A stretch of DNA of 63,846 nucleotides, the filler included, from Aduncisulcus paluster (lineage: Eukaryota), in the NCBI GenBank assembly GCA_024181965.1. It is 9 parts of 9 records of this genome, joined end to end, with 100 filler letters (N's around TTAATTAATTAA, not from the genome) between each part and the next. Parts side by side here need not be neighbours in the genome. Positions count along the whole stretch, not along the records: positions 36,145 to 58,601 come from BQXS01011399.1; 8 more parts are not named here. One strand, written 5' to 3'. Positions 3,019 through 61,964 of the stretch are shown here, piece by piece (within the stretch, counting starts at the first letter, position 1; every line of letters begins with the position of its first letter). Below the pieces are notes generated by a model. That model was not told the origin of the DNA, made no database searches, and worked only from the letters and a program-made list of their open reading frames with translations. The translations under genes were made by a program, and so were the position numbers.

Positions 3019-3118
3019 NNNNNNNNNNNNNNNNNNNNNNNNNNNNNNNNNNNNNNNNNNNNTTAATTAATTAANNNNNNNNNNNNNNNNNNNNNNNNNN
3101 NNNNNNNNNNNNNNNNNN
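3019..3118. other. Artificial contig-joining linker; others at 11935-12034, 15362-15461, 18855-18954, 25455-25554, 36045-36144, 58602-58701, 61804-61903
   Basis: Identical N44-TTAATTAATTAA-N44 blocks with stops in all six frames. Confidence 0.98.
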
Positions 3119-11933: not shown

Positions 11934-12034
11934 CNNNNNNNNNNNNNNNNNNNNNNNNNNNNNNNNNNNNNNNNNNNNTTAATTAATTAANNNNNNNNNN
12001 NNNNNNNNNNNNNNNNNNNNNNNNNNNNNNNNNN

Positions 12035-15361: not shown

Positions 15362-15461
15362 NNNNNNNNNNNNNNNNNNNNNNNNNNNNNNNNNNNNNNN
15401 NNNNNTTAATTAATTAANNNNNNNNNNNNNNNNNNNNNNNNNNNNNNNNNNNNNNNNNNNN

Positions 15462-18854: not shown

Positions 18855-18954
18855 NNNNNNNNNNNNNNNNNNNNNNNNNNNNNNNNNNNNNNNNNNNNTT
18901 AATTAATTAANNNNNNNNNNNNNNNNNNNNNNNNNNNNNNNNNNNNNNNNNNNN

Positions 18955-30520: not shown

Positions 30521-31363
30521 ATGGGAGATGACAAATTATTTGATTTTATGTTGAGTAAGAATGAAAATCTTATCGATTCTGTTGATAGTTTCATTGATAC
30601 TAAAATATTCGTTGAGAAGGAGCGTCAAAGTATAAAACCAAGCGAAGATTCAATTATTGACTTATTTACTCGAATATATATGAGCTCACCTGCTCATCAA
30701 GTATCACAAGCGGCTTCAAAATTATCTACTATTATTGGAAGGCCATCACAGTCTCATATTCCTCCTATTGACTTCTCTTCTGAAATACCACATCCAATAC
30801 ATTGTCAACCATTCGTATCTCTTCAACCTGAATCACCAAAAGAATCTCATACTCCTCTTTTAAAACCTGTATTCCAATCAACCTTTGAACCTTCTCAAAA
30901 GGACATTTCGAGAGAAGCTATTCCGCCTTATGGACAAGGATTAGAGCCAAATCAAGATTTAGTTCTAGATAATGGAGAATTTGGCAATGTTTCATTTGAT
31001 GGAGGTTCTCTTGATGCTACTTCTGTAAAAAACCCATTTGAAATCGACAAAGAATATATCTCTCCTGAAAACCCAATTCAAAAATCTACAAAAGATAACG
31101 ATATTAAAGAAATTGAAACTGAAGCTTTCGGAACAACTGATGACGCATTTGGAACAACTGATGACGCATTCGGAACAACTGATGACGCATTCGGAACAAC
31201 TGATGACGCATTCGGAACAACTGATGACGCATTCGGAACAACTGATGACGCATTTGGAACAACTGATGACGCATTCGGAACAACTGATGACGCATTTGGA
31301 ACAACTGATGATGCATTTGGAACAACTGATGACGCATTTGGAACAACGGAAGAATTTTCTTAA
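30521..31363 (+). CDS. Protein with a DDAFGTT repeat tail; possibly a clathrin-adaptor accessory protein
   Basis: 280-aa ORF with an NPF motif, an EFG motif and repeated DAF motifs. Confidence 0.6.
   Translation: MGDDKLFDFMLSKNENLIDSVDSFIDTKIFVEKERQSIKPSEDSIIDLFTRIYMSSPAHQVSQAASKLSTIIGRPSQSHIPPIDFSSEIPHPIHCQPFVSLQPESPKESHTPLLKPVFQSTFEPSQKDISREAIPPYGQGLEPNQDLVLDNGEFGNVSFDGGSLDATSVKNPFEIDKEYISPENPIQKSTKDNDIKEIETEAFGTTDDAFGTTDDAFGTTDDAFGTTDDAFGTTDDAFGTTDDAFGTTDDAFGTTDDAFGTTDDAFGTTDDAFGTTEEFS
31124..31348 (+). repeat. 21-nt coding minisatellite (AFGTTDD)x10 plus a partial unit
   Basis: gcatt(c/t)ggaacaactgatgac units. Confidence 0.95.
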
Positions 31364-36044: not shown

Positions 36045-36145
36045 NNNNNNNNNNNNNNNNNNNNNNNNNNNNNNNNNNNNNNNNNNNNTTAATTAATTAA
36101 NNNNNNNNNNNNNNNNNNNNNNNNNNNNNNNNNNNNNNNNNNNNT

Positions 36146-37773: not shown

Positions 37774-40700
37774 ATGGAAGAATTCTCAAAAATTATCCGA
37801 GAACTATATTTTACTCAAAATACCCGACACTCTTCATATTTAATCTTGGATTCATTCCTAACAAATAGTTTTTCGTCTCAGACTCTAGATTTATCCCATA
37901 TTTCATTTTCAGAATTTAATGTTATCCACTATATTTATCCCCTTCTTAAAAATAGTTATTTTCGGTCGACAGTTGAACTTGTACTACTTCCTGAAGATAT
38001 TCACCAAAAACAACTCGCCATGCCTGAGACTTCTGCATTTGATTATCACGGAAATAGAATTCCGTCTGCTTTTCCAAGTCAATATCATTCCCCTCCGTTG
38101 TGTGTGATCCTTACAATCATTATTGAACTGTTAGTCATTCAACTACGTCGTTCTCTGGATATTTCCGGGAAACCATTTCAATTCACCCGTTCAAATCGTG
38201 TATTTGGTATAACTATGCTTCCTTTTGATGATAAATATTCTCTTCAAAAGAGAATAATATTAAATATAAATTTCTTGAATCTTGCAAGAAACAACTTATT
38301 AAACAGTGATATTCAAGCATATATTGACTCTCAATATTTTTTCATTTTGGATTCTGATTTTATTGTTCCAAATTTTTCTCTGATCAATGAATTATTTTCT
38401 GGAGATGATGGAGGACAACCTGGAACATTTTCTGGTCCAGATGGATATTGGTATTTCCCTCTACTCTTAATCATCTTTAGTACAGCTTATTCCGATAAAG
38501 AAGAGTTTGTGAACGTTCAAAATGGAATTCACTCTAATATTATGCAGAGGAATGTCAAGAGTGATGATCGCAAATTAGTTCTCCAAGCTCCCCAGAATAG
38601 AACATTAATTGTTCCTCAAAACCTTGATTTTCACTTATACGAAGCCGTATTTTCTTCGGTTGTATCTTTTTCTCGTATGTATGATACTCAACCTATTCAT
38701 CCGATAACTGGATCAAATTGGTTTGAAATGCTTCTCCTTGANNNNNNNNNNNNNNNNNNNNGATAAAGAAGAGTTTGTGAACGTTCAAAATGGAATTCAC
38801 TCTAATATTATGCAGAGGAATGTCAAGAGTGATGATCGCAAATTAGTTCTCCAAGCTCCCCAGAATAGAACATTAATTGTTCCTCAAAACCTTGATTTTC
38901 ACTTATACGAAGCCGTATTTTCTTCGGTTGTATCTTTTTCTCGTATGTATGATACTCAACCTATTCATCCGATAACTGGATCAAATTGGTTTGAAATGCT
39001 TCTCCTTGAAAAGACCAGGAGAACCAAAACAAAACGTAATTATATTCTGCATTCCACTTCAACAGAAATTGATGGTATTTCCAGAAGCTCACTTCCTTCC
39101 CTTGTCGCTGCTGACAAGATGAGACATGAATCCTTGAAATTCTTTGAAAGTTGTTCGATGACAAAACATTTCCAGGAATACGCATTCTCTTATCCATGCG
39201 ATGATTCTCCGTTGAAATTCACTTTATTTACGTCTTTTGATGATCGAAAAAGAGCCTCGTGTGAAGAATTTTTCGATTCTATTCTCACTTTCGCTTATGT
39301 TCAAACTCCGATAACCCAATCAAAAGAGAGCTTATTTAAGAGGAAAATACCAAACAAAAAAACTCCCGTGGAGTTCAGTGAGGATGATTGTAGGAGTGTG
39401 AAGCTTGCGAGATGTTCGTATATGTTTAAGTATGAATGTCTGTTCTCCTGTGAGGTATCAACCCTCCAAACGTTGCGAGGATGGTATCTTCTTGAAGCTG
39501 ATCGATATTCAAACTTTATAAAATCCTTACACTCCTCTTTTAATCCAGACATCAGTAGTAATTATTGTGATGAATTCTTTAGTTATGTCTCGACACATTA
39601 TCAGCCTTTTAGTTTCGTTAATGACATGTCATTATTCCTTTTATTTAATCAACATATTTCCTTAGATCCTAAAAATAGAATATATTCCTCCATTCTGGGT
39701 ATTTTGGAGCAGGTTAAATATAATGATTATTCTTGGAATTCAACCCTCATTCCCACTGACATGACCTGGTTAATCGAACCAATGGGAATCCTTTCTCTTG
39801 TGTTGCCTATCATTCTCTCCAAGATATCAAGTTGTAATGTTAATATTCCTCATGAATTATGGCAAATGGTTGGATGTTGTCCGGAGTATGTTTTAAGGGG
39901 AATTCTTTGTTCCGGCATTCAATTATCATCGTTGTATTGGAATAGAACACTCTCGGATGAAACAAGTGGGCTCAATCAGTTGTTGTCCAGTGTGTTGAAG
40001 CGGACAGATGGCAAAACTCTCTGCGATATTTCAATTCGTGAGTGTGATGCTTCCTATTTTATCATGCTTCTTGCCAGAACACTGCCGAAAACAAAGACTT
40101 ACAATGTTGAATTGACTAAATGTTCTATTTGCGTTGATTCACTAATTGGATTTATTTTGAATGGAAACCAACTTTCTGAGCTCTCATTTAATGATGTTGT
40201 ATTTATTGGAAATCCTTCTTATTCCGGCAAACTTGTCTCATCAATGGCCTCAGATCTTGACTGCATAGAGGGAGAACCTTCAAGATTTGACAAATTAAAC
40301 AATGTGATTCTCCGACAGTTATGTTCTATGGATGACATATTCCATGGATCCTCGAATCATTCCAAAAATGCTCAGGAGATTTCTAAAACTTATTTATTTT
40401 TGAACATTCAAGCGCATTATAATAGGAATGTTGCTCCAATATTGAATTTTGATCATTGTGAAACCATTGATCGAGAAATAAGAGAAGATGAATCTGTGTC
40501 ACGATTTGTGAGCCTCTTGAGCCCTAAAAAAGATATCCCTCGATCTTTTGTTCTTCATAATCTTCAGATTTTCGGGTGTTCATTTTCATGTTGCAACGCT
40601 TTCTTAGATTTTATTGATTTTCTCAATTGGATTGTTCTCAGGAGTTGTAATCTCAATAGCTTTGGTCTTAGAGACATATTTATGTGGGACATTCTCCCTA

Positions 40701-41524
40701 TTTCAGATATTATAACAATTATGACTCCCTTGATGATTCAGAAAGTTATCAGAGCTTTTCCTGACATGCTTTCAAAACGATTCTACCACCTTTCTCTTTG
40801 TGGCTTGTATCCCACTGATGAGTTTTGTGATGCTCTTCTTGAGTGGGCAGATAGTCCAAACATCCATCTTGTTGAGATTGAAATGAATGATCTATATCGA
40901 TTGAACTATACCTCGAATATTCTCCTCCCACAATCGACACTCGATCATAAACGTTGTATGGAGGTTATCTTGGGGACAAAGTCCATTTGTGTCAAACCTG
41001 ACAAGGATCAAGTTGCTTTTTATAAGGAAAAAATATGTCTTGTGGAGAAGGATATGATCAAAACAATTGAGAAACTTTTTTCATTTTTTTCAAAAAGCTT
41101 TAAACGCGATGATACTGCGCTTGAAGAAGACGAAGCATCTTATTTCATGTTCTTCTTTGAATATAATCCTGGTTTTGATTGTGTGTCGAGGAATTGCAGT
41201 CTTTTGAGAAAGTTTGATGAAATTATGCATCATATTTGTTCACAAATGACATATATATCTTTGTGGGAGTCAGTTCAAATATCTGTCAATGCTTTATATG
41301 TTCTCACTAACAATATTATTCATGCAAGAAATCTAGAACTCTGTAATATTGGATTTATGCCAAACCTACCTTCAAAATCGTGTTATGATATACTTCGAAT
41401 GTTTTATCATGCTTTTGAATCATGTCCAATGTTAAATATCGCTTCTCTTCCTTTCTTGATTGATGATGATTTGAGAGCAAAGTTAATCGATGAATTTCCC
41501 TCATCACCATTCATTCAAGAGTGA
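37774..41524 (+). CDS. Large protein with degenerate RNI-like LRRs (about 1160 aa after removing the 268-nt gap duplication)
   Basis: LDLSH, INFLNLARNNL and LSELSFN motifs. The two ORFs join in frame once the copy of 38494-38741 and the 20 N are removed. Confidence 0.65.
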
Positions 41525-41774: not shown

Positions 41775-44700
41775 TTACAATTGAAAAGGTCGGAATCCAC
41801 AGCTATTCTCTTCTCTTTCTTCCTCGTTTCCCTCGATTATTTCCATCCCTTCCTTCCATGATTCCTGATCATACCCTTCAAATGAAACCTGACAAGTTTC
41901 ATGATCAAATAAAGATTCCACACCTCCACCTGTGTTTTCAACAAAATCATACACAGATTGTCTCAAAGATCTTTCCTCATCAAATGGCATCTTAACGAGT
42001 AAATGTTGAGGAGGAGTGTATTGGATGATAGATGAGTGTTTGATGCGATAGTTGTGTCCAAAAGAAAAAATACAATTCTTTTTTTCTTCATCTTCTAGCT
42101 CTTTATCCATTAATGTTGATTGTTTCCTTTGAGATGAAGTCATATCTAACATTTTATCGGGTATATGCGAATTAATACTTTCCTTCTCCATTATACCCAT
42201 TGTTGCTGATAAAGTATGAGATGGGTCTTCAATGCCAGGGGAAAAAAACCGCCGCTTACCAACAATATCATCGGTATGTTCATCTTTTGTTCCAAAACAC
42301 AATCTGCCACGTTGTATTGTTTGTTGGTCTTTTTTCATTTCCTTTTTTGTGATTATATTGACAACAAAAGTTATGATGGTATCAACATCAGCTTCTACAC
42401 TCATTCGACAACACACGTGTGAAGCATATGAATATCCATCTTTCTCAGGGCATAAAGATGTTTCAATTGAAGGGATTAATGACACTGGAGGAATAGAGTG
42501 GAGGAGTTTAGCAAGAAAAGGTGAAGATAGATAGGAAGATATATTAGAAAGATATCGATCAAAATGCATAAATTGCTTCATTTTATCGTCATATTTTGGA
42601 GATATCAGAGAAACAAGAGATGAAACAGTGGAGAACATGAAAATGAGATTGGACCAGACAATGATTCCCCATATATGGTTTCTCTTAATCATTATAGTTT
42701 CACACCATTCATCGAGAATATCTTTAATATTATCAAAGATTTCAACTGCATGTGCCGGATCACAACACAAATTTGAGAAGAATGATAAAACACATTCATG
42801 ATTATTCTCAACAATCTTATCCCCAACAAACTCTCTCTTAACAACATCAAGAACAGGGTGGAACAGAGGCCAAGCTTCAGAACAGAGGGATTTGTTGGGG
42901 GAGGTATTATCACTTGAGAGGGTGATGAATGATAGAATAAACATCCACTCTCCATAACACTTGCTATCATTGTATATCTTCAACCAATCTTTGATATATG
43001 GTTTGATGAGGGTGAGAATGGCGGATCGAGTGGAAGAAGCAGGAGAATTAGAGATGTTTCTGAGAGTTTTTAATAAATTTTGAGCAATTCTACCTCTCAA
43101 CTTTTTCTTACTTCCTCTCTCTAAAATACATTGGAACGTGGGAGATATTTCTGGTTGGAATAAGTCTTCCATATCTTCAACTCTGGCTTTGAAAGAATAA
43201 CACATACAAATTGAACAATACTCTTCATCAACATCTCCAGCCAACACCTGCCCAACTCTGGATAAATGACCAATGAAAGTGTCAATGAGATCATTTATAT
43301 CGGATGGAGGAAGATATGTTTTATCTCTAGAGATATCATATCGCATAAAACAACTTAAACACTTAATACATAAAGTAATTTCTCTCTGATGTTCCTTAAT
43401 ATCACAATTTGATTCGTGTGAAAGGAATTCAGATAAGAGTTGTTTATGTTCATGATATAGTTTTGATGGGGATGTAGAACCACGACAATGTTTGATAAGA
43501 TTGAGTAATTCAATTAACTTGTGGCAACAAGGTGAAGAATTGGAAAGATATCTTGTGTAATCTCCCCATAGGGCTCCATTATTTTTACACCATTCCATAT
43601 TGGCATCAAATTTTGGACAAATTTGGGGAATAATAGCCGGAAGAGTGGAGAATATAGAAATGAGTCTAGACCAGAATATGATACCCGATCTGTATTCTTT
43701 CTTCTTTATAGCTTCAAACCACCCATCAAGAATATCTTTTACATTGCCAAAGACTCCAACTGCATGTGATGGATCACAACACAAATTTGAGAAGAAGAGT
43801 AAAACCCATTCATGATCATCCTCAACAATTGTATCCCCAAGAAATTCTCTCGTAACCACATCAAGAACAGGGTGGAAGAGAGGCCAAGCTTCAGAACAGA
43901 GGGATTTGTTGGGCGTTTCATCACTAAATAGGGTGATATTTGATAGAATATACATCCATTCTCCATAACACTTGCTATCATTGTATATCCTCAACCAATC
44001 TTTGATATATGGTTTGATGAGGGTTAGAATGGAGGATCGAGTGGAAGAAGCAGGAGAATTAGAGATGTTTCTAAGAGTTTTTAATAAATTTATAGCAACA
44101 TTGCCTCCAAACTTCTCCTTGCTTCCTCTCTCTAGAATACGTTGGAACGTGGGAGATATTTTAGGCAGGAAGGAATCCTTTTTATCTTTAACTTTGAAAG
44201 AATAATATCCACAAATCTCACAATACTCTTCATCAACATCTTCTCCCAACACTTCCCCACATCTTGATAGGTGAGCAATGAAAGTGTCAGTGAGATCATT
44301 CAAATCGAGAATAGGGAGATAGATCATATTTCCAGAAATATCATGTCTGACAAACAATCCCAAACACAGAACACAAAGTACAATCTCCTTTTTGTGTTCC
44401 TCAATCTCACTCTTTGATTGGTACTCAAGGAAGACAGAATGAATCTCATCTCGATGTTCATGGTAAAGTTTAGAAGTTGACTCATAATCAGGGCATTTCT
44501 TTACGGAATCAATGAATTCCTTCCATTTCTTGAGAGAAGCATAACAATTACTGAGATACATTAAATAATCGTCATAGCTCCATCCTCCATTTTTCATACA
44601 CCAATACATCTCGTCATCGAATTTAGGTGAGAGTTGAGGAACAAGAGATGGAACGGAGGAGAGCATGGAAATCAGATTGGACCAGTATTTGATTCCAAAC

Positions 44701-45722
44701 ATATCACTTTTTTCTTCCTTCTTCTTCTTTACCAACTCAAACCAACTATCAAGAAGATCATCTACTTTGATGCATTGATGAACTTCAATGGCATGGCAAG
44801 GAATGCAACACAGATGAGCAAATAACAATAAACAACGAATGATACTTTCATCATCAAATAAAATACCCTTGGAATCAGTATCCGTAATCACATCCAAAAT
44901 AGGATGGAAGACAAACCAAAGTTGTGAAGAACGACCTTTGTGAACGTTTTCATTATCCTTATCACGAATAACATTCTTCAGAATATTTGTCCAATGCAAA
45001 AAGAACTTCTTATCAGGATACTTCTTCATCCAAGGTAAGATGTGAGGGAGAAGAAGGGACAAAAGGGAGTCTTTGGTGTAGTTATTTTCGGCAAAGGCGA
45101 AATTTCTACATGTTATGAGGATATCTTCGATGAACGAATTCTCAAGTTTTTGGGATATACCAAGAGCTAATATCTTGGAGAGAATAGAAGAGATTTGGGG
45201 AAATATTTTGATTCGAATGGATTCAACTTTGCCAAGAGAGACATTTAGAATCCTAAACAATATCATTGTGATTGAGCTCACGCCAGTTTCTTTTGTTCCA
45301 CTATCTTCTTCTTCTTCGTTAATGCCTTCTTCATTCATCCTCAAAATGGCTTCAACTTTGATCATTTGAGGCAAGAAAGAGTCAATGAGGTTTATAATGG
45401 AAGATTTATCAAGGATAATCTCAATATTTTCTTTATCTCTATCTTCAGGAGTTTCATCTTTTCTTTCTTTTCCATCTGTAGCTTCTTCTTTCGGAATTTT
45501 ATGCTTCACAAACAGGAATAAACATTCAAAACATAGAGTGAAGAGATCTCGATTGGATGTGATAGTAGAAGGTGTCGAGTATTCGTCAAAGATGGCCTGA
45601 AGACGTGATTGAGATTTTTCATAAAGTGATGTTAATTCAATGGTGGTCCTTTTAATAGAAACTCTCAATTTTTCAAGATATGTTTTGCTGAAAGGCTTTG
45701 TTGTTGGTTTAGAAACAAACAT
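41775..45722 (-). CDS. Lineage-specific helical (ARM/HEAT-like) repeat protein with about three units of roughly 337 aa
   Basis: 1315-aa ORF; highly similar DNA repeats offset by 1011 nt (e.g. 43023 vs 44034) plus a more diverged N-terminal unit. Confidence 0.8.
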   Translation of the reverse strand: MFVSKPTTKPFSKTYLEKLRVSIKRTTIELTSLYEKSQSRLQAIFDEYSTPSTITSNRDLFTLCFECLFLFVKHKIPKEEATDGKERKDETPEDRDKENIEIILDKSSIINLIDSFLPQMIKVEAILRMNEEGINEEEEDSGTKETGVSSITMILFRILNVSLGKVESIRIKIFPQISSILSKILALGISQKLENSFIEDILITCRNFAFAENNYTKDSLLSLLLPHILPWMKKYPDKKFFLHWTNILKNVIRDKDNENVHKGRSSQLWFVFHPILDVITDTDSKGILFDDESIIRCLLLFAHLCCIPCHAIEVHQCIKVDDLLDSWFELVKKKKEEKSDMFGIKYWSNLISMLSSVPSLVPQLSPKFDDEMYWCMKNGGWSYDDYLMYLSNCYASLKKWKEFIDSVKKCPDYESTSKLYHEHRDEIHSVFLEYQSKSEIEEHKKEIVLCVLCLGLFVRHDISGNMIYLPILDLNDLTDTFIAHLSRCGEVLGEDVDEEYCEICGYYSFKVKDKKDSFLPKISPTFQRILERGSKEKFGGNVAINLLKTLRNISNSPASSTRSSILTLIKPYIKDWLRIYNDSKCYGEWMYILSNITLFSDETPNKSLCSEAWPLFHPVLDVVTREFLGDTIVEDDHEWVLLFFSNLCCDPSHAVGVFGNVKDILDGWFEAIKKKEYRSGIIFWSRLISIFSTLPAIIPQICPKFDANMEWCKNNGALWGDYTRYLSNSSPCCHKLIELLNLIKHCRGSTSPSKLYHEHKQLLSEFLSHESNCDIKEHQREITLCIKCLSCFMRYDISRDKTYLPPSDINDLIDTFIGHLSRVGQVLAGDVDEEYCSICMCYSFKARVEDMEDLFQPEISPTFQCILERGSKKKLRGRIAQNLLKTLRNISNSPASSTRSAILTLIKPYIKDWLKIYNDSKCYGEWMFILSFITLSSDNTSPNKSLCSEAWPLFHPVLDVVKREFVGDKIVENNHECVLSFFSNLCCDPAHAVEIFDNIKDILDEWCETIMIKRNHIWGIIVWSNLIFMFSTVSSLVSLISPKYDDKMKQFMHFDRYLSNISSYLSSPFLAKLLHSIPPVSLIPSIETSLCPEKDGYSYASHVCCRMSVEADVDTIITFVVNIITKKEMKKDQQTIQRGRLCFGTKDEHTDDIVGKRRFFSPGIEDPSHTLSATMGIMEKESINSHIPDKMLDMTSSQRKQSTLMDKELEDEEKKNCIFSFGHNYRIKHSSIIQYTPPQHLLVKMPFDEERSLRQSVYDFVENTGGGVESLFDHETCQVSFEGYDQESWKEGMEIIEGNEEEREENSCGFRPFQL

Positions 45723-46466: not shown

Positions 46467-48388
46467 TTAAGGGTGTCCAATCATCCGGGAATAATATTCA
46501 CGCAGGCTTGATGAATATTCATGGACTCTCTTGGTGATCAGTTCCTTACTATTTTTAAATAATTCAATCTTTCTATCCACTTCCACGCTGTATAATTCGG
46601 CTTCTCTCATGGAAGACTTCTTATCCTCTTCATGTTTATGTCTAATTTCATCGAGTTCCTTTTCAAGTGCATCATTTTCCCTTTTCAGCTTATTATAGTT
46701 TTTCTTCAATACAACTATACTCGACATCTCTTCATGACTCGTATAAGACTTCTTTAACGACCGTGGGGACTCTTCATCACTCGATTCAGATGGTGAGTGT
46801 GATTCAAAAATCTTCTTTTCAAGCTCATGTTGTTGTATTTTAAGTGATTGTAATGTTTGTTTCTTTTCTGAAAGAGATTCTCCACAAATACTCGCGAATG
46901 TTTTGAGACGACTCAGAAGTAACTCAATATTTCCGAGCGGAGATAAAGAATCAGAGCACCTTAATTGGATTGAAGATTCTGTCAATGTCATGTCTTCTTG
47001 ATCATCTTTAACTTCAATACCGATAGTTGGGATATCCTCATTGCACTCATCCGCTTGAAAGTTAAATGATGACAATTGTTCCTTAATTTCCTTCATTTTA
47101 TGGTGCTTAATTTCCTCATAGTATTTGGACAACTTCTCTTCAATTTCAGAAATAGAGGCTTCTTTCTTTGCAATCAAGGACTCAAGGGAGGCATTCCGTG
47201 CCTTGAAAGCACGTATATCGAGTGGTTGGAGAGGTTGAGAATCACGACGGGCCTTCAGGGAGTCTTGATATTTCTTTCGTTCGTCTATTGTTTGTAGCAG
47301 ATTCGAATATACTTTTCTGTCATCTTCTAGACTATTTGTAGCCTCAGTTTTCTTGTGAATGATTTCTTTACGTTCGGTTTCCAATTGNNNNNNNNNNNNN
47401 NNNNNNNAGCACGTATATCGAGTGGTTGGAGGGGTTGAGAATCACGACGGGCCTTCAGGGAGTCTTGATATTTCTTTCGTTCGTCTATTGTTTGTAGCAG
47501 ATTCGAATATACTTTTCTGTCATCTTCTAGACTATTTGTAGCCTCAGTTTTCTTGTGAATGATTTCTTTACGTTCGGTTTCCAATTGATCTAAACTTTTC
47601 TCTAACTTCTCAAGTTCACTCCTTTTTACATCAAGCTGAGACCCACGGGATCGACTCTCGAGTTCCTTCTTGAGATCTGCCAACTCAGCCTCAAGCGCGG
47701 CCTTTTTACGATGAGACCTTAAAAGTTTTTCTTCAAATAATTTTGGGATTGGGTCGAGTTCATCCTCTCCTGTTTCGCCTTTGACATTAAATGCATGATA
47801 ACTTTCGAGAAGACATCGATTGATCAGAAGATGTTCTGGTTCTGTTATAAGGCTCTCATCTTTCCCTTCTTCTCCCTCTTTTTCTTCTTCCTCCTCTTCC
47901 TCTCCTCTTTCTCCCTCTTTTTCTTCTTTATCTCTTGACTCATTATAGAGTGGAAGCCAATCATCGTCAAACGGATCGAAGAGAATATTCTCCACGATCC
48001 ATCCGAAAAATTTCAAAACCGAAAGATATTTATACGACCGTGGAAGTTGAACAAAATCTTTCAGATATTTCTGCAGGTCAATAATTTGCTTTGGACAATG
48101 CAAGACCGAGAGATATGTTTCAAGTTTTAGTGGAGGAGACTCAGAGGTAAAATGAATAAAAAATAATTTTTTAGACCGATTCACAGACTTGAGTTCAATA
48201 TCGGAAATTGTTGGGTCAAATTGTTCAAGAAGAAATGCTAAAATTTTGCGCATAGTCTCAGGCATTAAATTATTTCCTTGATCTCCCTTCTTAAGAGCTG
48301 ATGCGAGAGATGTTTCGTAATTCCAGTCAAGAACTGTAGTAATTATACGCAGAGATTCAGTCGAAGGGTCAGAAGTTGTTAAATCCAT
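46467..48388 (-). CDS. NDC80: Kinetochore protein Ndc80/Hec1-like (573 aa after removing the 200-nt gap artefact)
   Basis: CH-like N-terminus (ILAFLLEQFDP..LSVLHCP..LSVLKFFGWIV), then LLESYHAF..G..EL, then a long coiled coil broken by a non-helical loop. 47208-47387 is duplicated at 47408-47587. Confidence 0.65.
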
Positions 48389-48721
48389 CACTTCATGCTA
48401 GCAAATCAATATATTTTTATGTTTTTTCTTAATTCTATTAATTGAGCATAATTTTTAGAAATATCAGTATAAAATTATAATAATATGATTTAAAGTATTT
48501 GAATCTCCCACTTTCTAGCATTCTTTCAATCTATATAATGCCCAATGCAATTTTTTTCGTTATCGAAAATGGAAAAATAAATAATAACATATTTATTGAA
48601 TATTTATCATAAACATGATTAATAAGTATTGCATTGGGCGTAAAAATCCATCGCAGAATGTCAAAGATTTTACTTTCAAATTATTGAAATCCATTTGGGT
48701 GCATTGTCCAATAACTTGTCA
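48389..48721. promoter_or_regulatory. Putative bidirectional promoter with mirror-image motifs
   Basis: GCCCAATGCAAT (48540-48551) and ATTGCATTGGGC (48628-48639) form a perfect inverted pair; ATTTGAA (48497-48503) and TTCAAAT (48675-48681) sit about the same axis. Confidence 0.6.
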
Positions 48722-50543
48722 ATGAAAACCCAAGACAAGAAACTTAAAAAGGAAATTGACGAGCTTACCCAAGCTATTTCCGATCTTAAAAGAACATATC
48801 CCGATGAAATTAAATTTTCGGAAAATCTCCGATCTAATATCGAAGGATTAGAACATACTATACATAAGGATGCTCATAGGCGTCGAATCCATGAGGAAAA
48901 AGCCATGGCGATATTCACCGAGTTGTTTATGACTCATGTGGGTAGTTCTCCAGATGAAATGGCTTCTCGCTTCAGGCTTTATCAAAAAGATACATCAGAA
49001 GAATCAACTTCCAAAGCAAATTGTGTTTTATGGAGGGAGATCAGTAAGATTATGAAGGCCTTGGATGTTCCCCTTACATTTCACACATTTCATTTCCCAT
49101 CACCGAGAAAGATGTGCTCAATTCTATTTAAATATTGTAGCTTTTTTGAATATGGAAAAACGATAACAAAGGATCTTGTTGCGACAAGGGAAACCTTGGA
49201 AAAAGACGCGCAGCTCTCCAAAAAAACAAAATTAGAAATTATAAAAACAAAAGCAGCGATTGAAAAGTTTAGGGAGAAAGAGGAAGAAGAACAAGAAGAA
49301 ATAGCTGAAATTGATGATAGAATATTTTCATGTACAAAAGAGATTCAGAGACGTCAACAGGACATTGAACTTGATACAAAAGAGTATTCGAAGGTCCAAA
49401 TGTTAGTACAGCTAATTCAAAATTCAAAACGGGAACCTCAATCAATTTTGGATGCCCTTGAAGAGTCGATCAAAGTTATCGAATCTGAGATTGTCTCTGG
49501 TGGCGAATCATTGATAAAAAGGGGTGATGAACTTGAAAAAGACTGTGTACAATTGTCAAAGAAAGAAGCAGATTTAAGATACCGCCTGAAAACATATGAG
49601 AGTATTGATGCGGAATTATCAACCGTAAGCTCGGAACTTGCAAAGACGGACGAAATGTTCCATCGTATTAAGGAAGGCAAGAAAGTAGAAGAGCTGATTC
49701 TTGATACCGAAATTGAAATAGAAGGAAGAAGAACAAGAAGAAATAGCTGAAATTGATGATAGAATATTTTCATGTACAAAAGAGATTCAGAGACGTCAAC
49801 AGGACATTGAACTTGATACAAAAGAGTATTCGAAGGTCCAAATGTTAGTACAGCTAATTCAAAATTCAAAACGGGAACCTCAATCAATTTTGGATGCCCT
49901 TGAAGAGTCGATCAAAGTTATCGAATCTGAGATTGTCTCTGGTGGCGAATCATTGATAAAAAGGGGTGATGAACTTGAAAAAGACTGTGTACAATTGTCA
50001 AAGAAAGAAGCAGATTTAAGATACCGCCTGAAAACATATGAGAGTATTGATGCGGAATTATCAACCGTAAGCTCGGAACTTGCAAAGACGGACGAAATGT
50101 TCCATCGTATTAAGGAAGGCAAGAAAGTAGAAGAGCTGATTCTTGATACCGAAATTGAAATAGAGAGGCTGGACTGTGAGGTTTCTTTGCGTGATACTAA
50201 ATATATCCCTCAGATCGATCATGGAGAAATCGATCAGCTTATTCGGGGATTTGAAACCAATACCAGGGAGTTTGATGAGAAAACTCAGTGTGATGATGAA
50301 ATTGCCCACCAAAAACTGGATCTTGAGGATAAGATAAGTGTTTTTGAAGATTCGATTAAATCCCGTAAAACTCAAATTGAAAAGTATAAGAGAGCTAACG
50401 AGACATCGAAGGAGGAAGCCAAAGAAAACAAAAAACGACTAAGAGCAAGACTTGACAAGGAGGAAAAAGATTATGATCGATTTATTGCAAATCTTAAGAG
50501 TGCCCTCGATCCTGAAAGTTTTCCAAAAGAAGAAGAAGAATAA
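48722..50543 (+). CDS. NUF2: Kinetochore protein Nuf2-like (459 aa after collapsing a 442-nt tandem duplication)
   Basis: AMAIFTELFMTHVG..LWREISKIMKALDVPLTFHTFHFPSPRKMCSILFKYCSFFEY resembles the end of the Nuf2 CH domain (L..M....V.DF...DL..P...R....LS..INF..F), followed by coiled coil. 49281-49722 is repeated at 49723-50164. Confidence 0.65.
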
Positions 50544-50573
50544 CGATAAGGAACGAATTTTCATTCCGAAACG

Positions 50574-50921
50574 ATGCAAGATCTTGTTCTGAAGCGTAAA
50601 GAGGTTGATGCCGACTATCAACAAGCTCTGAAGGAAAACACTGATGCCGTCAAATATTTATCCCATCTTGAAGAGCAGAAGTTGCGTCTTGGCCAGAAGC
50701 TTGAGAGCTATGTCCAATCCACTCTCTCCACGGCTGGGCCTGATCGTGAAACTGGTGCTCATCGTGAAGAATTGATTGAGCTTGATAAGATGCAAAAGAT
50801 GTCGAGAGAGCTTCGTGATGAATGTGACACCCTCCGTGCGACTGTTATGTTGCTAAGATGTAAAAGTGGAAGCATTCGAGAGGCCGGAGAAGATGAATTT
50901 GTTCCGGAAGGTCCCATGTAG
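50574..50921 (+). CDS. Short coiled-coil ORF resembling the extreme C-terminus of CFAP44/WDR52
   Basis: ALKENTDAVKYLSHLEEQKLRLGQKL...LRATVMLLRCKSGSI resembles the CFAP44 tail (L..NT..L..L..L...K..L...L ... LRRKGG.I), from recall. Confidence 0.45.
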   Translation: MQDLVLKRKEVDADYQQALKENTDAVKYLSHLEEQKLRLGQKLESYVQSTLSTAGPDRETGAHREELIELDKMQKMSRELRDECDTLRATVMLLRCKSGSIREAGEDEFVPEGPM

Positions 50922-51350
50922 GTGAAGTTTTATTGAATAAATCTGTTATAAGTATGTTTCTTACATGTTCGGAATAAATTATTTGCATAAAGACATTCTG
51001 TTGGTTGTTCTACAGAATTAATGCTTGGAGCAAATTTACTATTCCGAAATAAAATATTAATTCCAGTTTTTGGATTCCCATCCAAACCAGCCTGGCCAAA
51101 AAATAAGTTTCTTGATTTTTGTCTCAAGTAATCTGTACTCTTCCCAATCAAAAGGCGAGATTTTATTTTATTTTTGTTTAACATTGTCAAAAGTATTCCC
51201 ATAATCCTTGTTGTATGTCAAATTCTCCATGAACAGATTAAATGGAATCGGACACATTGATCTGAACATGGTATCAGAACGTTTTTATCTCCTTTGAACC
51301 ACTTACTTTTCTTGTTTAACATTTTCATTAGATACGATATCAAATTATCA

Positions 51351-52430
51351 ATGAGTTCATCCACAGATATTGAAACCATAAAGTGTGAGGTTTATGTTGC
51401 TAGAGGAGGCTTTGATTGCAATCCAATTCCCAGAGATGGCCCTAACGTTAAGAATCCAGAGTTTACGAGTATTGTGGCTAGCAATGAAACCGAGGAAGAA
51501 GGATCACCTGGCTTCGATCAAAGTTCTGGTGCACAAAAGATGATGCGTGGAGAGGAGAATTATGATTCTATCTTTACTTTTATCTCGCTTCCTTTTTCTT
51601 CTCCTACCCCAATGAAAGGCGCTTATATCTGTTTGGATTGTAGTTTTTTACCAGAACATCTTCTCTTCACGTTCACTTCTTCAAAGAGTGAAAAGATATC
51701 CAAGAAATACGATATTATAAAATTTCAAGGTTGGCTTTGGTTTTTCTTGCCCATTGATCTCTCTGACGTTGTTTTATGTGAGATCACGGGGAAAGGAAGA
51801 GAAAAAGAATGGTTTGTAATCAGATCTCTTGTTTTCTTTCAAGAAGACACCCCCGATGAAATCATGGCCCGTGAAGCCAAAGAGAAACTCTGGTCTGAAG
51901 CTCCAGTTCTGGAACCCTATATTGCTTGGTCTATAACTTGTCCGGATGATTTCATTTCCATTCGATCCGATGATCCTAGGCGTGTCAACCCTTTGTACTC
52001 GATGGTCAAGTGCAAGAATAATGTGTTTTGTGAGGAATCTGTGTATTATGATCAGAGTTCTCAAGCTCAAAAAATGTTGAAATGGGAAAGTGGTGAATGT
52101 GGGCAAGACGCTGTTCTATTGTCCCATATTTCCATCCCTTTTCCATCCCCTAGCCCCCTGAAATGTGTGTATTCCTATGTGACTGAGTGTTGTTCACCCT
52201 CTCTGCTCTTCACTTTCACAGATTGTACCGGTAAGAAGACATCGATAAGGTATGACTTTTCAAGGCCTATTGATGAATGGTACTACCTTTACATTAACTT
52301 GCCGAATGTTGTGTTATGCGAGATTGAAGGAAAAGGAATGTGGGATAGGCGACAAAGTAGCCAGTTCTGCATCGACTCTCTCGTTTTTATTAAGTCGGAG
52401 GAACTCGAAGCTGCATCTGAATGCAAATAG
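51351..52430 (+). CDS. Intact two-domain member of the lineage-specific 'MKGAYI' beta-rich family
   Basis: Two tandem units: AQKM..G..ISLPFSSP.PMKGAY..LLFTFT..K..KY..W..L.I.L..VVLCEI.GKG..F.I.SLVF. Confidence 0.8.
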   Translation: MSSSTDIETIKCEVYVARGGFDCNPIPRDGPNVKNPEFTSIVASNETEEEGSPGFDQSSGAQKMMRGEENYDSIFTFISLPFSSPTPMKGAYICLDCSFLPEHLLFTFTSSKSEKISKKYDIIKFQGWLWFFLPIDLSDVVLCEITGKGREKEWFVIRSLVFFQEDTPDEIMAREAKEKLWSEAPVLEPYIAWSITCPDDFISIRSDDPRRVNPLYSMVKCKNNVFCEESVYYDQSSQAQKMLKWESGECGQDAVLLSHISIPFPSPSPLKCVYSYVTECCSPSLLFTFTDCTGKKTSIRYDFSRPIDEWYYLYINLPNVVLCEIEGKGMWDRRQSSQFCIDSLVFIKSEELEAASECK

Positions 52431-52925
52431 ATATGTTTCTCTCTTTGATCACAGTAGGAACAACTCATGAGTTATTCCTCCCAAAAAACAATGCAGCGTG
52501 ATAGGTTGTTAATTATAATTTATTCAAGCTATTAATGATCCGGTCTGAATCAGAGTGAACAAAGACGATGGATTTGAGTGAGCATACAGAAGTAATTCAC
52601 GAGGATATCGGCATGAGCATGCCATGCTGGCTTGTTAGCTGAGGATGAATTTTTCACATCACATCATAGGATCAAAACAAATCAATAAATCTTTCACGAT
52701 TTGAACATTATTATGAACCAATAAAACAATAAAAAAAATAGTTAATTTATAAAAAAATTAATATTCTCAAAAAGTTAAAAAAAAAAAAAAAAAATGAAAT
52801 TGAAAAAAATATACCAGGGTAAAATTATAAAAATGAGAACAAATATAGAATGTATAAAAATAATCGACTTTATACAAGCAAGTTTAAAAACAGTGTCACG
52901 ACAACTTGAAATGTCGTATTCTCTT

Positions 52926-55900
52926 TCACTTCCTTACTCCCATTCTTCGATTTAACTTCGAATTTAATTTCTTGTTTTCCTTCATAACCTTATTGTACGC
53001 AGCCTTAAGCTTTTCAATGACAGCAGCGGCCGTTCTAGCATTTCCACGGAGCCGTTGCAATGTTTCCACTCGAGAATGTTTCTCTTCTTCTATCCGCTCG
53101 AGTTCTTCGAGACTGCGTTTAAGCTGATCACACTTCACTTCATAGAGTTTTTCTTGTTCTTGATATTCATTCGATTCCCGTTGAGACCAGATATCACATT
53201 GAGAGAGAACTCCAGTGGCACACCGTGAGAATTTGCATGATCGCCACTGTTCCTCAAGGGAAAGGTTCTGAATAATGGATTGACATTGAGAAAGAAGGCA
53301 TAAAACCGATGAGAAGGATTTTGAGGAAGGTGAAAGGATCAGAGCAGATGACTTAACTCCACGAGGGAGGCTTGGAGAGACGGATGAAGATGGCCGATGA
53401 TCTTGATCTTTCCTTATACCATTGTCTATTGAAGTAACAGTGCCACGAGATAAAGACGTGGAATCATAAGCAGACGTAGATATACCTCCAAGATCCCCCA
53501 GACACTCCATCAAACTCTCCATGAGTCCATGAAGCTGAGCACCTGCACTTGTCAATGGACGAACAAATCGTTCAAGTGATGCAAATCCAACCATTTTCTC
53601 CTTTTTACGTCGCAATTGGCTTATACTCAGTCCAACGCCACTTGATTTCTTTGTGAGTTTATCTGACTGATGCCCATCTTGTTTGGTGGAATAACCAGCG
53701 GTTGGAGGTGGAGTCGAAGCTGAGCGAGCAGATCGGTTTAAGCGAGCACTGGGAGAACTCTCACCAATAAATGAAGCCTTTGATGGATTCGAGGATTCTA
53801 TATTCTTGGGTGCCACTTCAGTCTCATCACATTCGAGCCAATCGTCCCGTCCTTTTCTCTCCCATTCCTTTGCTACCATCATAACAACATCTTCACATAC
53901 TTTGGCACCTTCTCCAAGTATTCCTGCACTGAGCGAGGCAAAACGTCGAAGTCTTGTCTCGGAAGTGGCCAAGGTACTCCTCAGGGAGGACAAGAATGAG
54001 GTGATGAGAGACAGCATGAAGCTAAGGGAGTGGACAGAAGGAGGAAGGGAGTTTGAAGAAATAGGGTGGATGAGAGAAGAAAGTGAACCACAGTTGTGTG
54101 AATTGAATCCTCTTTTGATTGAAGCTGCCCTTCCTTTCCTCGTAACAGAACTGCTTCGCATGCTGTTGGTAATCCCAAGAGTGTCACGTTCGTGTACATT
54201 TCCAAGGGCTTCCTCCTCGGAGGGAATATTATCATCGGAATAGATAACCTCTTGCGAACATGAGCGCGAGTTCTTGGAGGNNNNNNNNNNNNNNNNNNNN
54301 AGAAGAAAGTGAACCACAGTTGTGTGAATTGAATCCTCTTTTGATTGAAGCTGCCCTTCCTTTCCTCGTAACAGAACTGCTTCGCATGCTGTTGGTAATC
54401 CCAAGAGTGTCACGTTCGTGTACATTTCCAAGTGCTTCCTCCTCGGAGGGAATATTATCATCGGAATAGATAACCTCTTGCGAACATGAGCGCGAGTTCT
54501 TGGAGGAAGATAGTGTAGAGGACAGGGAAGGAGATGAGGCAGCTGGAAGAGATGTGGTGGTGACATTGGGAAGCATCCATGAAGATGGTTTGTATGGATT
54601 CTTCGTTGTTCGAGAGCTAGGCACACCTCGAGCACTGACACTTCTTCTCCTTCCTTGAGAATCATAATGAGTGGCTGATGTCTGAGACAACTTCTTTCGA
54701 TAATTCTGAAGCTTTATAAACGCAGCATACTCTTCTGCATCACGTACAAGGTCTTCTCCGGGTAATATGGCAATACCACGATCACGGATAATTTGACCAC
54801 GGGGACCCTTATGAACACATGTAATTTGTAACACCCTCGCGAACTCCTTCAGTTCTGAAACGATCATATCTTTTTCCGATGGTTTCATATTTGCTGAATG
54901 TCTTGATTTTGGAATGTCGAGTTTCTCGTTTGATACTCGGCCAGAACCGGCATTAATAGAATCATCACTCTCCTCGATCGTCTTTGTATCATCATCATCT
55001 TCACCATCTAAATGAAGATCATATGAAGTACAAGTAGTACTTGACTTAACCATTGGATCCATCGAATGTCCATTCCGTGCATCATGTTTTCCTCGTGATT
55101 CTGTTGATTCTCCTTTCTTTCCTTCCTTTCCTGTGTGTCTATAACGATCCTCTAACTTATGTGCTGGAGCAGATCCATCATCGATAGGGGACTTACTTCC
55201 ATCTTTTGCTTCACTATTAGTGTCGTAATTTGAACTCTTTCGACTGGTTTGATGATGGGAAATAATATCGCGTAAACGATCAATCTCTGAATCTCGGTAG
55301 GCCAATTGATCCTTTAATTCGGCCAATTGTTTATCCTTCTCTGCACATCTGGCAATCTCAGCATTCTTTTCCTCTCTTTCTCTCTCCTTTCCTCTTTCAC
55401 TGAGTTGCCACTTCTTCCGAAGCTCACACAACTCCCTTTCCATTTCGTGCACCACACGAATCCATACTTTCCTCTCGTCTTCTTTTTCCTTCGCAAATTT
55501 TGATCGTTCTTGCTTCNNNNNNNNNNNNNNNNNNNNATCTCTGAATCTCGGTAGGCCAATTGATCCTTTAATTCGGCCAATTGTTTATCCTTCTCTGCAC
55601 ATCTGGCAATCTCAGCATTCTTTTCCTCTCTTTCTCTCTCCTTTCCTCTTTCACTGAGTTGCCACTTCTTCCGAAGCTCACACAAATCCCTTTCCATTTC
55701 GTGCACCACACGAATCCATACTTTCCTCTCGTCTTCTTTTTCCTTCGCAAATTTTGATCGTTCTTGCTTCATACGTTCATTCCTCTGCCGTTCCTGCAAG
55801 AATCTCCCGGAAAGTGTTGAGATCGACCACAAGGAAGAGAGAGGATTGTGGGGTTGAACGATATGTTTACGACCTTCTGTGGTACTCGATAATACTGATG

Positions 55901-58601
55901 AAGAAGAAGGAGAACTCGACGAAGGAGCTCCGGGAGAGCTTGGAGGAGGAAGAGCTGCAAGAGAGGAGAGAGATGCTGAGGAGAGAGACGATGGGCGGAA
56001 AAGAGACGATGGAGATGGAACAGATGGTGGCTGTGCGATATGATGATCATAATCAGACCCTGCACCAACTCCATGATGGGAGCTAAGAACTTTCTTACGA
56101 ATAGATGAAGAAGAATCTCCTTGTAAACCACGGTCAGATGATGAGAGAGAGAATGTTGTGCTGCTTGGTGATAATGGAATCTGATCCAATAATCTATTTT
56201 TGGGCACTTCTGAGAAGGTATGCTTATTATTATTCGTAATATTGGAAGTGGATAAATCTTTAGTATCGGTTTGTTGCATTTGTGTTGATTCCATTTCGTC
56301 TCCATTTGGATGATTAACACTTGGAGTTTGGGTGTTTGAAGATATAGGATCACGTCTTGCATCGTTCATCCACTGTTCCATCTCCTTCTCTCTCTCTTCC
56401 CTCTTTTTTTCTGCATGTAAATGTGCCATCCACGTCATTACGAGGGACGTGAGAGACGATATCAGGGAGAGAAGGGAGTGACCCTCAATCTCAGGAATGT
56501 CAAATGATTGTTCATNNNNNNNNNNNNNNNNNNNNATATTGGAAGTGGATAAATCTTTAGTATCGGTTTGTTGCATTTGTGTTGATTCCATTTCGTCTCC
56601 ATTTGGATGATTAACACTTGGAGTTTGGGTGTTTGAAGATATAGGATCACGTCTTGCATCGATCATCCACTGTTCCATCTCCTTCTCTCTCTCTTCCCTC
56701 TTTTTTTCTGCATGTAAATGTGCCATCCACGTCATTACGAGGGACGTGAGAGACGATATCAGGGAGAGAAGGGAGTGACCCTCAATCTCAGGAATGTCAA
56801 ATGATTGTTCATTATCTTCACATGGCATGGATGATTCGTTTAGTTGGGATCTAGACTGAGATTGCCGTTTAGAAGAGAAATAAGAGGAAGAAGAGGCCTT
56901 GTTGGAAGAAGAATGAGGTGAATGTGTGGCATGGAGAGAGGATACGGCTGGAGTATCATCAGGCAAGAAAGGATTAACAAACATTTGGGGGTCTTCTTTC
57001 TCCTCATCGCCATTACCATGCTCCTCAAGTTCCTCAGTGATCATGGCTCTTTCCCTCAGTGGAATATGACCGATTGTATAATGTCTCCCCTGGGGATTCG
57101 CCTGTAGTTCTGAGAGTGGAGCAAGCGAAGAAGACCCATCGGTGTGTGGACTAGTAGAACCTTTAGAAGGACGTGGCACTCCAATATGGGATGTCGAGGA
57201 AGACACATCGACTCCAGAACGATGAGTGGAAGAGGAAGCAAATTTCTTTGTTCTGCTTTGCAACACACGCTCTCTCTCGCGTTGCAACTCTTCGATCTGT
57301 TTAGCTCTCGTGGCTTTGATCTTTTCCTGTTCTTGTTGAGCTCTTTCAGACTCAGTCATAGCAACTCGATCTGCAACATGTAAAAGGGAACTAAGCTCAG
57401 ATCCAGAGGGACACGAGGAGCGAGCATCGAAGGAACTGCCTCGACTTGAGGATGCACGCAGGAGAGTCTTGGTGTCAGGAGTGGAAGAGCCAGAGAGAAG
57501 GCCAGGTTTTCTTGGGATAATGTTTCCTTCTTCCTGCATCCGTCGAACGTATTCTATCGTCTGTTTTGATAGTTTAGGGACATCTCTTTGTGAGGGATGA
57601 ACTGGTGGCTCGACAGATGTGGATTTATACCGAGTGTTATTACAAACAGAGCCACTTTCTTCAGTAAATCTGGTTTGTGAACTTGACCCCGAGACTCTTG
57701 GTCTTGACTCATCCTTTTCTCTCTCTTGCAGCCTGGCAATCTCTTTTTTCCTTTGGCTCCATCTCAGCTTGCGCTGTATCTCCATTTCCTTGATTTCTCT
57801 CTGAACCTCATGAGCCAATGTTCTTATTGTCTTCTCACAGAGTGAGTTGGTATGCAATAGAGTGTCATATGAGTGTTCAAGCGACGATATGTTCTCAGCA
57901 AAGGGTAGACCAATCATCTGAGAGTCAGTGAAATGTCCAGGTGGGCCTGCTCCAAGTGTGGGAGGCAAAGGAGGAGAAGTTGAAGAGGAAGGGAAAGGAA
58001 TTGTTACACTGCCAGCATCTTGATCTGTGATAGTCCCAGTTCTGCGTCTAATTGGACTTGCGTTGTGTGTTGACGGAGTTGAAGAGGTTGAGTCCATACT
58101 CCTTGTTCTAGAAAGAAGATGTTCGCCGACAATACCCTCATTATCATACAAATCTTTATCATCATTCTCAATGACTTCATTTCTATATTTAGAATCATAC
58201 GAATAAGCAGGACTTTGATACTGATCCCCACTCCTCGGTTCGGATGTTCCTTCGATTCTTCCTTGGGTATATGTGTCAGTACCAGCCTCCAAGAAGGACA
58301 TTCGAGAAGATGAAAGGTATTTCGAGTTATCAGTCCTCGGATCTGCGTATCTCTCTACTTTCTGGGTTGATGAGGCTCCAAATTTGGTCACGCCATCATC
58401 TTCTTTATGATAATTATGTGTTCCAATGGACTCATTGAGAGCTGGAGGAACGATAGGCTTTGCAAAGGAAGCGCCAAGCTCAGCGGGGACTGCTTGAGGT
58501 GTGGTAATGGCAGTATTACCGTGGAAAGATGGGGGAGGGGAAGAGGAACCAGAAGGAGAAGAGGAGGAGGAGTGTGTGGGGGTAAATGTGGTTCGTAGAA
58601 G
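52926..58601 (-). CDS. Single large Ser-rich/coiled-coil protein, 5'-truncated (about 1632 aa after removing three gap duplications)
   Basis: Removing offsets of 226, 254 and 297 nt at gaps 54281, 55517 and 56516 gives one continuous frame from the contig edge to TGA at 52926. Confidence 0.75.
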
Positions 58602-58701
58602 NNNNNNNNNNNNNNNNNNNNNNNNNNNNNNNNNNNNNNNNNNNNTTAATTAATTAANNNNNNNNNNNNNNNNNNNNNNNNNNNNNNNNNNNNNNNNNNN
58701 N

Positions 58702-61803: not shown

Positions 61804-61964
61804 NNNNNNNNNNNNNNNNNNNNNNNNNNNNNNNNNNNNNNNNNNNNTTAATTAATTAANNNNNNNNNNNNNNNNNNNNNNNNNNNNNNNNNNNNNNNNN
61901 NNNCATAAGAATCAGATAAACTAAATAATAAAGTTTCATCAAAGAAAATAATAAGATGTTTCAA

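Follow-up and report, generated by a model that had tools for sequence, protein, structure and literature searches.

A head-to-head pair of coiled-coil genes in Aduncisulcus paluster, candidates for a divergent Ndc80/Nuf2 pair

The DNA analysed here (the window) is a stretch of 63,846 nucleotides, filler included, from the draft genome of Aduncisulcus paluster (GenBank assembly GCA_024181965.1). Within it lie two divergently oriented genes whose products each begin with a head at the N-terminus and continue into a long coiled coil. We refer to them as gene A, at 46467-48388 on the minus strand, and gene B, at 48722-50543 on the plus strand; they are candidates for the genes of Ndc80 and Nuf2, respectively, the heterodimer partners of the kinetochore. 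The pair was proposed in an earlier reading of the sequence alone (the original prediction), and the fornicate setting assumed there is borne out by the deposition of the gene A product under Aduncisulcus paluster, which is another free-living fornicate, like Carpediemonas.

Two genes behind four broken reading frames

As deposited, the locus contains four open reading frames (ORFs) under the standard code. Two are on the minus strand, at 46467-47096 (209 aa) and at 47327-48388 (353 aa, entering a run of N), and two are on the plus strand, at 48722-49750 (342 aa) and 49842-50543 (233 aa). Each gene contains one assembly artefact. In gene A the 180 nt to the left of a gap of 20 N at 47388-47407 (that is, 47208-47387) recur to its right at 47408-47587 with 179 of 180 positions identical, the mismatch being A at 47232 and G at 47432. 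As the flank recurs on both sides of the gap, 200 nt are surplus, and repeat comparison and contigs identify 47208-47407 as a scaffolding artefact. A "200-nt gap artefact" had been claimed, and 200 nt is indeed the length of the surplus, but the gap itself is 20 N accompanied by a 180-nt duplicate of its right flank, not 200 N. In gene B, the segment 49281-49722 is followed at once by an identical copy at 49723-50164, a perfect 442-bp tandem duplication and the sole one in the window; this second copy shifts the frame of the gene and is identified as an assembly artefact by repeat comparison and contig joints.

With both artefacts removed, the frames are 573 aa on the minus strand (after loss of the 200 surplus nt) and 459 aa on the plus strand (after loss of one 442-nt copy), each with a single terminal TAA. 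The four broken ORFs thus read as two divergent genes of the lengths originally predicted, and the start codons (ATG at 48388 on the minus strand and at 48722 on the plus strand), the 333 nt between them and the orientation are all as first claimed.

The repaired forms were compared with Logan contigs of two public runs, X1 and X2, whose molecule types are tentatively given as DNA and RNA, respectively. In both runs one contig passes directly from 47232 to 47433, skipping 200 nt, and one passes from 49280 to 49723, skipping 442 nt; these contigs have no further joints, letter changes or indels. The perfect tandem copy proposed as the frame-breaker of gene B is therefore skipped by the contigs of both runs, and since the contigs lack the surplus, a second assembler working on the same or related data yields the repaired forms. 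X1 and X2 represent one sample, possibly the source of the deposited assembly, and they therefore constitute an independent assembly rather than independent data. The repaired contigs show no intron in either gene. Genes A and B are two real, intronless, head-to-head genes, and their number, repaired lengths, architecture and orientation are established.

The gap artefact is systematic in the window. There are 20-N gaps at 6225, 21568, 38742, 47388, 54281, 55517 and 56516, and at all seven the right flank is duplicated leftward, with offsets of 309, 213, 268, 200, 226, 254 and 297 in the same order; removal of the surplus produces a single open frame across each of the seven. Elsewhere in the window this repair gives a frame of 1160 aa at 37774-41524 on the plus strand and, across three gaps, one of 1532 aa at 52926-58301 on the minus strand. 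Where gene models of this assembly extend across such a gap, they are likely to include duplicated residues or false introns, and with a flank duplication at each 20-N gap seen in the window, models would be affected genome-wide. The deposited model of gene A, "hypothetical protein ADUPG1_009991 [Aduncisulcus paluster]", is an example: it has 612 aa and differs from the repaired protein only by 39 artefactual residues, which are duplicated at the gap (the two share a prefix of 313 and a suffix of 298 residues). It had been supposed that automated annotation would miss the pair. This is correct insofar as the gene A product is named only as a hypothetical protein and no deposited model of gene B was found among lengths of 183-583 aa, but the minus-strand gene does have a deposited model.

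The coiled-coil layout of the two proteins was obtained with a heuristic heptad scan of our own. Protein A consists of a head (residues 1-140, encoded at 47969-48388 on the minus strand, isoelectric point (pI) 6.1) that is a putative NN-CH domain, an acidic insert (141-180), a short helical part (181-205) and a coiled coil that starts near residue 216 and has two breaks, one at about 375-420 and one at 466-483. The first of these breaks, encoded at 46929-47066 on the minus strand, is non-coiled and loop-like, and lies about two thirds of the way along the protein. Protein B has a head at residues 1-150 (pI 8.9) and a coiled coil from about residue 150, interrupted briefly at 239-262 and 349-352. 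Counted from where the coiled coil begins, about 358 residues of A and about 309 of B remain up to the C-terminus. This difference is approximately the size of the ~45-residue break in A, as expected for chains that pair lengthwise. Ndc80 proteins are about 570-690 aa long and Nuf2 proteins about 450-470 aa, and the 573 and 459 aa observed here are close to these sizes. Within the head of A, and where the head of B ends, short motifs appear to follow the order that they have in human Hec1 and Nuf2.

The spacer and the linkage of the two genes

Genes A and B both lie within the piece at 36145-58601 (BQXS01011399.1), and both start codons fall in one gap-free stretch of it, 47408-54280; the claim that the genes are on one contig thus holds, though the window as a whole is nine joined pieces. 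The assembly pieces are joined by eight artificial 100-nt linkers, each composed of 44 N, TTAATTAATTAA and 44 N, at 3019-3118, 11935-12034, 15362-15461, 18855-18954, 25455-25554, 36045-36144, 58602-58701 and 61804-61903. As the nine pieces are separate, gene order across the linkers has no meaning.

The 333 nt between the start codons (48389-48721) are AT-rich and are presumed, on the basis of the sequence, to be a shared divergent promoter region, through which the two genes could be co-regulated. The spacer contains a perfect 12-nt inverted repeat, GCCCAATGCAAT, with arms at 48540-48551 and 48628-48639 (48540-48639 overall) and CCAAT in each arm; a weaker third copy at 48700-48713 retains the CCAAT core. 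These two arms are the only matches to GCCCAATGCAAT in the window at one mismatch or fewer, and at least two matches occur in 7 of 100 shuffles. The repeat may be a shared regulatory element.

No re-assembled contig spans the spacer, so it is the deposited assembly by itself that vouches for the linkage. Two X1 contigs overlap by just 30 nt, at 48596-48625, and a 148-nt X1 record of similar word depth matches 48596-48629 (one letter differs) and then continues with similar but different sequence; the branch begins at the right arm of the inverted repeat. X2 is without a contig over 48362-48803, which carries no weight as evidence. This raises the question of whether the genes are real but not neighbours, having been brought together by a short-read misjoin within the spacer. 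Two other assembly errors within 3 kb, a two-copy stretch from 50560 and the nature of the species draft (Illumina-only, with an N50 of 4.6 kb) are in keeping with a misjoin, as are the missing contig across 48596-48629 and the alternative branch. Set against these are the gap-free stretch that holds both start codons, the fact that a 30-nt overlap is normal for adjoining contigs of one graph, and the resemblance of the alternative branch to the window's own spacer, because of which it may be a variant copy. The two loose-end sequences of these contigs have no further copy in the window. On balance we regard a misjoin as very unlikely.

The two-copy stretch starts 17 nt past the stop codon of gene B. 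From 50560 the word depth of the X1 contig is roughly doubled and there are two different neighbours on its left, and the X2 contig in this region carries the other left neighbour; the ORF at 50574-50921 is therefore unsafe to interpret. This ORF (115 aa) lies inside the two-copy stretch, is in frame with gene B and matches no Pfam family. Readthrough of the gene B TAA into it under an alternative code was considered and rejected: both genes end in TAA, and the standard code keeps long ORFs open throughout the window.

Identity of the two proteins

The best available reading is that A and B are an Ndc80/Nuf2 pair, orthologues that have diverged beyond the reach of profile hidden Markov models (HMMs), and we put its probability at about one half. 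It draws on the language-model neighbours of the two proteins, on the match in architecture and sizes, and on a weak pass in heterodimer prediction; no alignment or fold displays the relationship that was originally proposed.

In the ESM Atlas, protein B first matches a Nuf2 cluster (score 0.91), with which it has 180 of 256 features in common. Its top three rows are all Nuf2-bearing cluster sets, comprising 14, 7 and 7 of the 30 matches, and IFT81 stands at rank 22 (0.83) among the 30 listed neighbours. In calibration, at least 170 features were shared in 9 of 10 same-family first matches versus 1-2 of 10 chance or distant ones. For protein A the neighbours are Nuf2 at 0.88, Ndc80 and IFT81_CH both at 0.87, and clusters of CCDC22, CCDC93 and IFT57 at 0.84; its named neighbours are all families with a calponin homology (CH) head and a coiled coil. 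The Atlas results for A and B count as one source of evidence, which is moderate for the identity of B and a lead only for that of A.

Heterodimer prediction (ESMFold2, no alignments) gave an interface score (ipSAE) of 0.42, with runs at 0.42, 0.43 and 0.37, versus 0.00 for the best of three controls. Agreement between the runs is at least 72% of contacts, and the predicted local distance difference test (pLDDT) value of the partners is at least 72. Of 78 solved complexes, 51 reach the mark that the pair passes, as do 2 of 108 mismatched pairs. The result gives weak support to the heterodimer expected from the original prediction.

A good deal weighs against the identification. No alignment-based method detects a relationship to Ndc80 or Nuf2. 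The profile check proposed at the outset was made against Pfam at E≤10, and neither the four large pieces of the proteins (20 rows) nor five head and tail pieces (24 rows) matched Ndc80_HEC, Nuf2, NDC80_loop or Nuf2_DHR10-like. Specifically, Ndc80_HEC (PF03801) did not match the 327-aa N-terminal piece of A or its 145-aa head alone, Nuf2 (PF03800) did not match B pieces of 333, 160 and 101 aa, and NDC80_loop did not match the break in A. Comparison by phmmer with PDB sequences returned 5, 4, 5 and 1 rows, with no chain of Ndc80, Nuf2 or another CH family among them. Residues 1-235 of A searched by phmmer against 1,835,955,588 proteins recovered only the gene's own model; this 1.84-billion-protein collection includes other fornicates (there are Carpediemonas and Hexamita rows). 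A word-indexed search likewise yielded no relative at E≤0.01 among 4453 candidates for A (lengths 179-573) and none at E≤1 among 3482 candidates for B (lengths 183-583), and among metagenome contigs tblastn confirmed none of the pattern matches, 582 for B and 581 for A, as a relative. AlphaFold2 models made without alignments are unusable (pLDDT 38.9 for residues 1-235 of A and 48.3 for residues 1-193 of B); Foldseek comparison of these models with the PDB gave nothing at E≤0.001, and at such low model confidence its rows are meaningless.

The proteins and their scores contribute to the same side. The head of A is near-neutral (the pI of 6.1 refers to residues 1-140), it starts within the first ~15 residues so that A lacks the basic N-terminal tail that is typical of Ndc80, if perhaps not universal, and it is followed by the acidic insert of 40 residues. 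The first ~60 residues of B resemble one long helix, so that only about 90 residues remain to form a globular part, fewer than expected of a CH domain. The best Atlas match of A is below 0.9, with 162 features shared, and the Atlas "recognition" values of 1805 (A) and 1922 (B) are both under the mark of 2300, below which a high score is weak evidence. Scores of 0.60 or less in heterodimer prediction comprise only 5 of the 78 solved complexes, yet all four passing mismatches (of 180), so that a pass at 0.42 is in a band more often wrong than right unless pairing is likely beforehand. Unrelated proteins, which were probably not coiled coils, served as controls, and because Ndc80:Nuf2 complexes have already been solved, the pass may reflect likeness rather than binding. 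Finally, the scope of the analysis is the window, within a species draft that is 40.4% BUSCO-complete, and canonical Ndc80 and Nuf2 could be encoded elsewhere.

Many of the same observations would suit two lineage-specific coiled-coil proteins with helical, non-CH heads, in which case the Atlas would be reflecting a general build and the adjacency of the genes would be a coincidence. The empty profile, sequence and fold searches, the recognition values under the mark, the sub-0.9 score of A and the weak band of the heterodimer score all fit such proteins, and 12 of 20 scanned window ORFs are without a Pfam family. However, the named Atlas neighbours are all CH-head families and not other coiled-coil families, the score of B is 0.91 with 180 features shared, and the sizes and coiled-coil lengths of A and B suit a pair; we consider this origin unlikely, though by no means negligible. 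The pair could instead be another CH-head heterodimer of the IFT81/IFT74, IFT57/IFT38, CCDC22/CCDC93 or HAUS6/HAUS7 kind, acting in flagella, trafficking or microtubule branching. Such families are also paired CH and coiled-coil proteins, the organism is flagellate, and IFT81_CH, CCDC22, CCDC93 and IFT57 are among the Atlas neighbours of A. Best profile matches to IFT, HAUS or CCDC22/93 had been named as the outcome that would speak against Ndc80 and Nuf2; this did not occur, since IFT81_CH, IFT57, CCDC22_N, CCDC93_N and HAUS (including HAUS6_N) all failed to match the same Pfam pieces at E≤10. IFT proteins are usually well conserved and easy to detect, while kinetochore proteins evolve fast. 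With the neighbours of B led by Nuf2 and IFT81 only at rank 22, and with sizes that suit Ndc80/Nuf2 better, a pair of this kind seems distinctly unlikely.

It is also conceivable that gene B alone is Nuf2, with gene A encoding some unrelated protein of coiled-coil type and the genuine Ndc80 located elsewhere. The Atlas signal is specific only for B, and the head of A, which is acidic and has no tail, is placed ambiguously there. Nonetheless, the two proteins together pass the heterodimer mark, if weakly, A shows a loop-like break and is longer by the right amount, and its Atlas neighbours are still all CH-head families, and we judge such a split to be quite improbable. Two further ideas concern the origin of the pair. 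A recent inverted duplication of one gene was rejected, the best BLASTP comparison of A with B having an E-value of 2.6, and the suggestion in the original prediction that the linkage survives from the ancient duplication that gave rise to Ndc80 and Nuf2 is unsupported for the same lack of detectable similarity. Pfam rows on the N-terminal helix of B for Spc29 (0.072), CENP-Q (0.11) and Mis14 (0.15) were rejected as coiled-coil noise, far short of the cut-offs.

If the Ndc80/Nuf2 assignment is correct, gene B (459 aa) would encode Nuf2 and gene A (573 aa) Ndc80, and the two chains would pair through a parallel coiled coil, with the paired heads contacting spindle microtubules. The break at about 375-420 of A would correspond to the Ndc80 loop, and the C-terminal ends would dock on Spc24/Spc25, neither of which was recognised among the window ORFs scanned against Pfam. 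The fold of the heads, the heterodimer, the role at the kinetochore and any co-regulation through the spacer are inferred.

Other features of the window include two long ORFs near the pair that have no Pfam family, one of 1315 aa at 41775-45722 on the minus strand with long internal repeats and one of 359 aa at 51351-52430 on the plus strand made up of two similar halves. On a separate piece, 15462-17963 on the minus strand encodes a long-chain acyl-CoA synthetase (AMP-binding, E 4.8e-67), whose best named relatives are from A. paluster (72% and 40% identity), Carpediemonas membranifera (37%) and Hexamita inflata (35%). Short in-frame tandem repeats are present inside ORFs at 31127-31311, 1933-1999 and 12661-12723, with periods of 21, 15 and 21 nt, respectively.

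Comparison with known systems

Carpediemonas is reported, in the text of the study that describes it, to lack all four Ndc80 complex subunits and to be the sole such eukaryote besides the kinetoplastids (10.1101/2021.03.14.435266, PMC8516963). That text makes no mention of Aduncisulcus, and the supplements of the same study may cover more metamonads; a literature search found no paper that brings Aduncisulcus and the kinetochore together. The A. paluster draft is later than the Carpediemonas study and is an Illumina-only MaSuRCA assembly of 29.4 Mb in 25,863 contigs, with an N50 of 4.6 kb, a GC content of 39.1% (C. membranifera has 57.1%) and a BUSCO value of 40.4% (PMC9933649). The GC content of the window is 38.7%.

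Should A and B be Ndc80 and Nuf2, they would show how far the Ndc80 complex can drift among fornicates, and they would serve as intermediate, stepping-stone queries for re-testing its reported loss. A bolder form of the proposal is that a deep-branching, Carpediemonas-like fornicate keeps an HMM-invisible, tail-less Ndc80-Nuf2 pair with an acidic insert in the Ndc80 head, diverging around a CCAAT palindrome, and that the published absence in Carpediemonas may be in part a detection limit; taken as a whole we hold this to be improbable. Head-to-head genes of obligate partners would be an uncommon eukaryotic case of linked subunit genes, and no linked NDC80-NUF2 genes (head-to-head, with a bidirectional promoter, or in a metamonad) were found in paper titles or abstract openings.

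There is precedent for divergence of this extent. KKIP1, an outer-kinetochore protein of trypanosomes, is reported to be a relative of Ndc80/Nuf2 that has diverged past ordinary searches (PMC5294786, 10.1101/764829). It differs from the present case in belonging to a different supergroup; its assignment to the family reportedly came from profile comparison together with localisation. The IFT81/IFT74, IFT57/IFT38, CCDC22/CCDC93 and HAUS6/HAUS7 pairs have the general build and the heterodimer logic of A and B, and some of them are Atlas neighbours of A at 0.84-0.87; they are unlike the present pair in that their Pfam models fail on both proteins, that they rank below Nuf2 for B, and that their sizes fit less well.

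The closest comparison is with Ndc80 (Hec1):Nuf2 itself. The family HMMs fail on A and B, A is without a basic tail and has a head of pI 6.1 with an acidic insert, and the genes are head to head and 333 bp apart, in contrast to human and yeast, where they are unlinked. The likenesses are in the overall plan: in both there are two chains in which a head at the N-terminus leads into a long coiled coil, and the longer chain appears to have an internal break; the 573 and 459 aa are near the typical sizes, the nearest Atlas clusters are Nuf2 and Ndc80, and the two proteins are predicted, by a weak pass, to pair.

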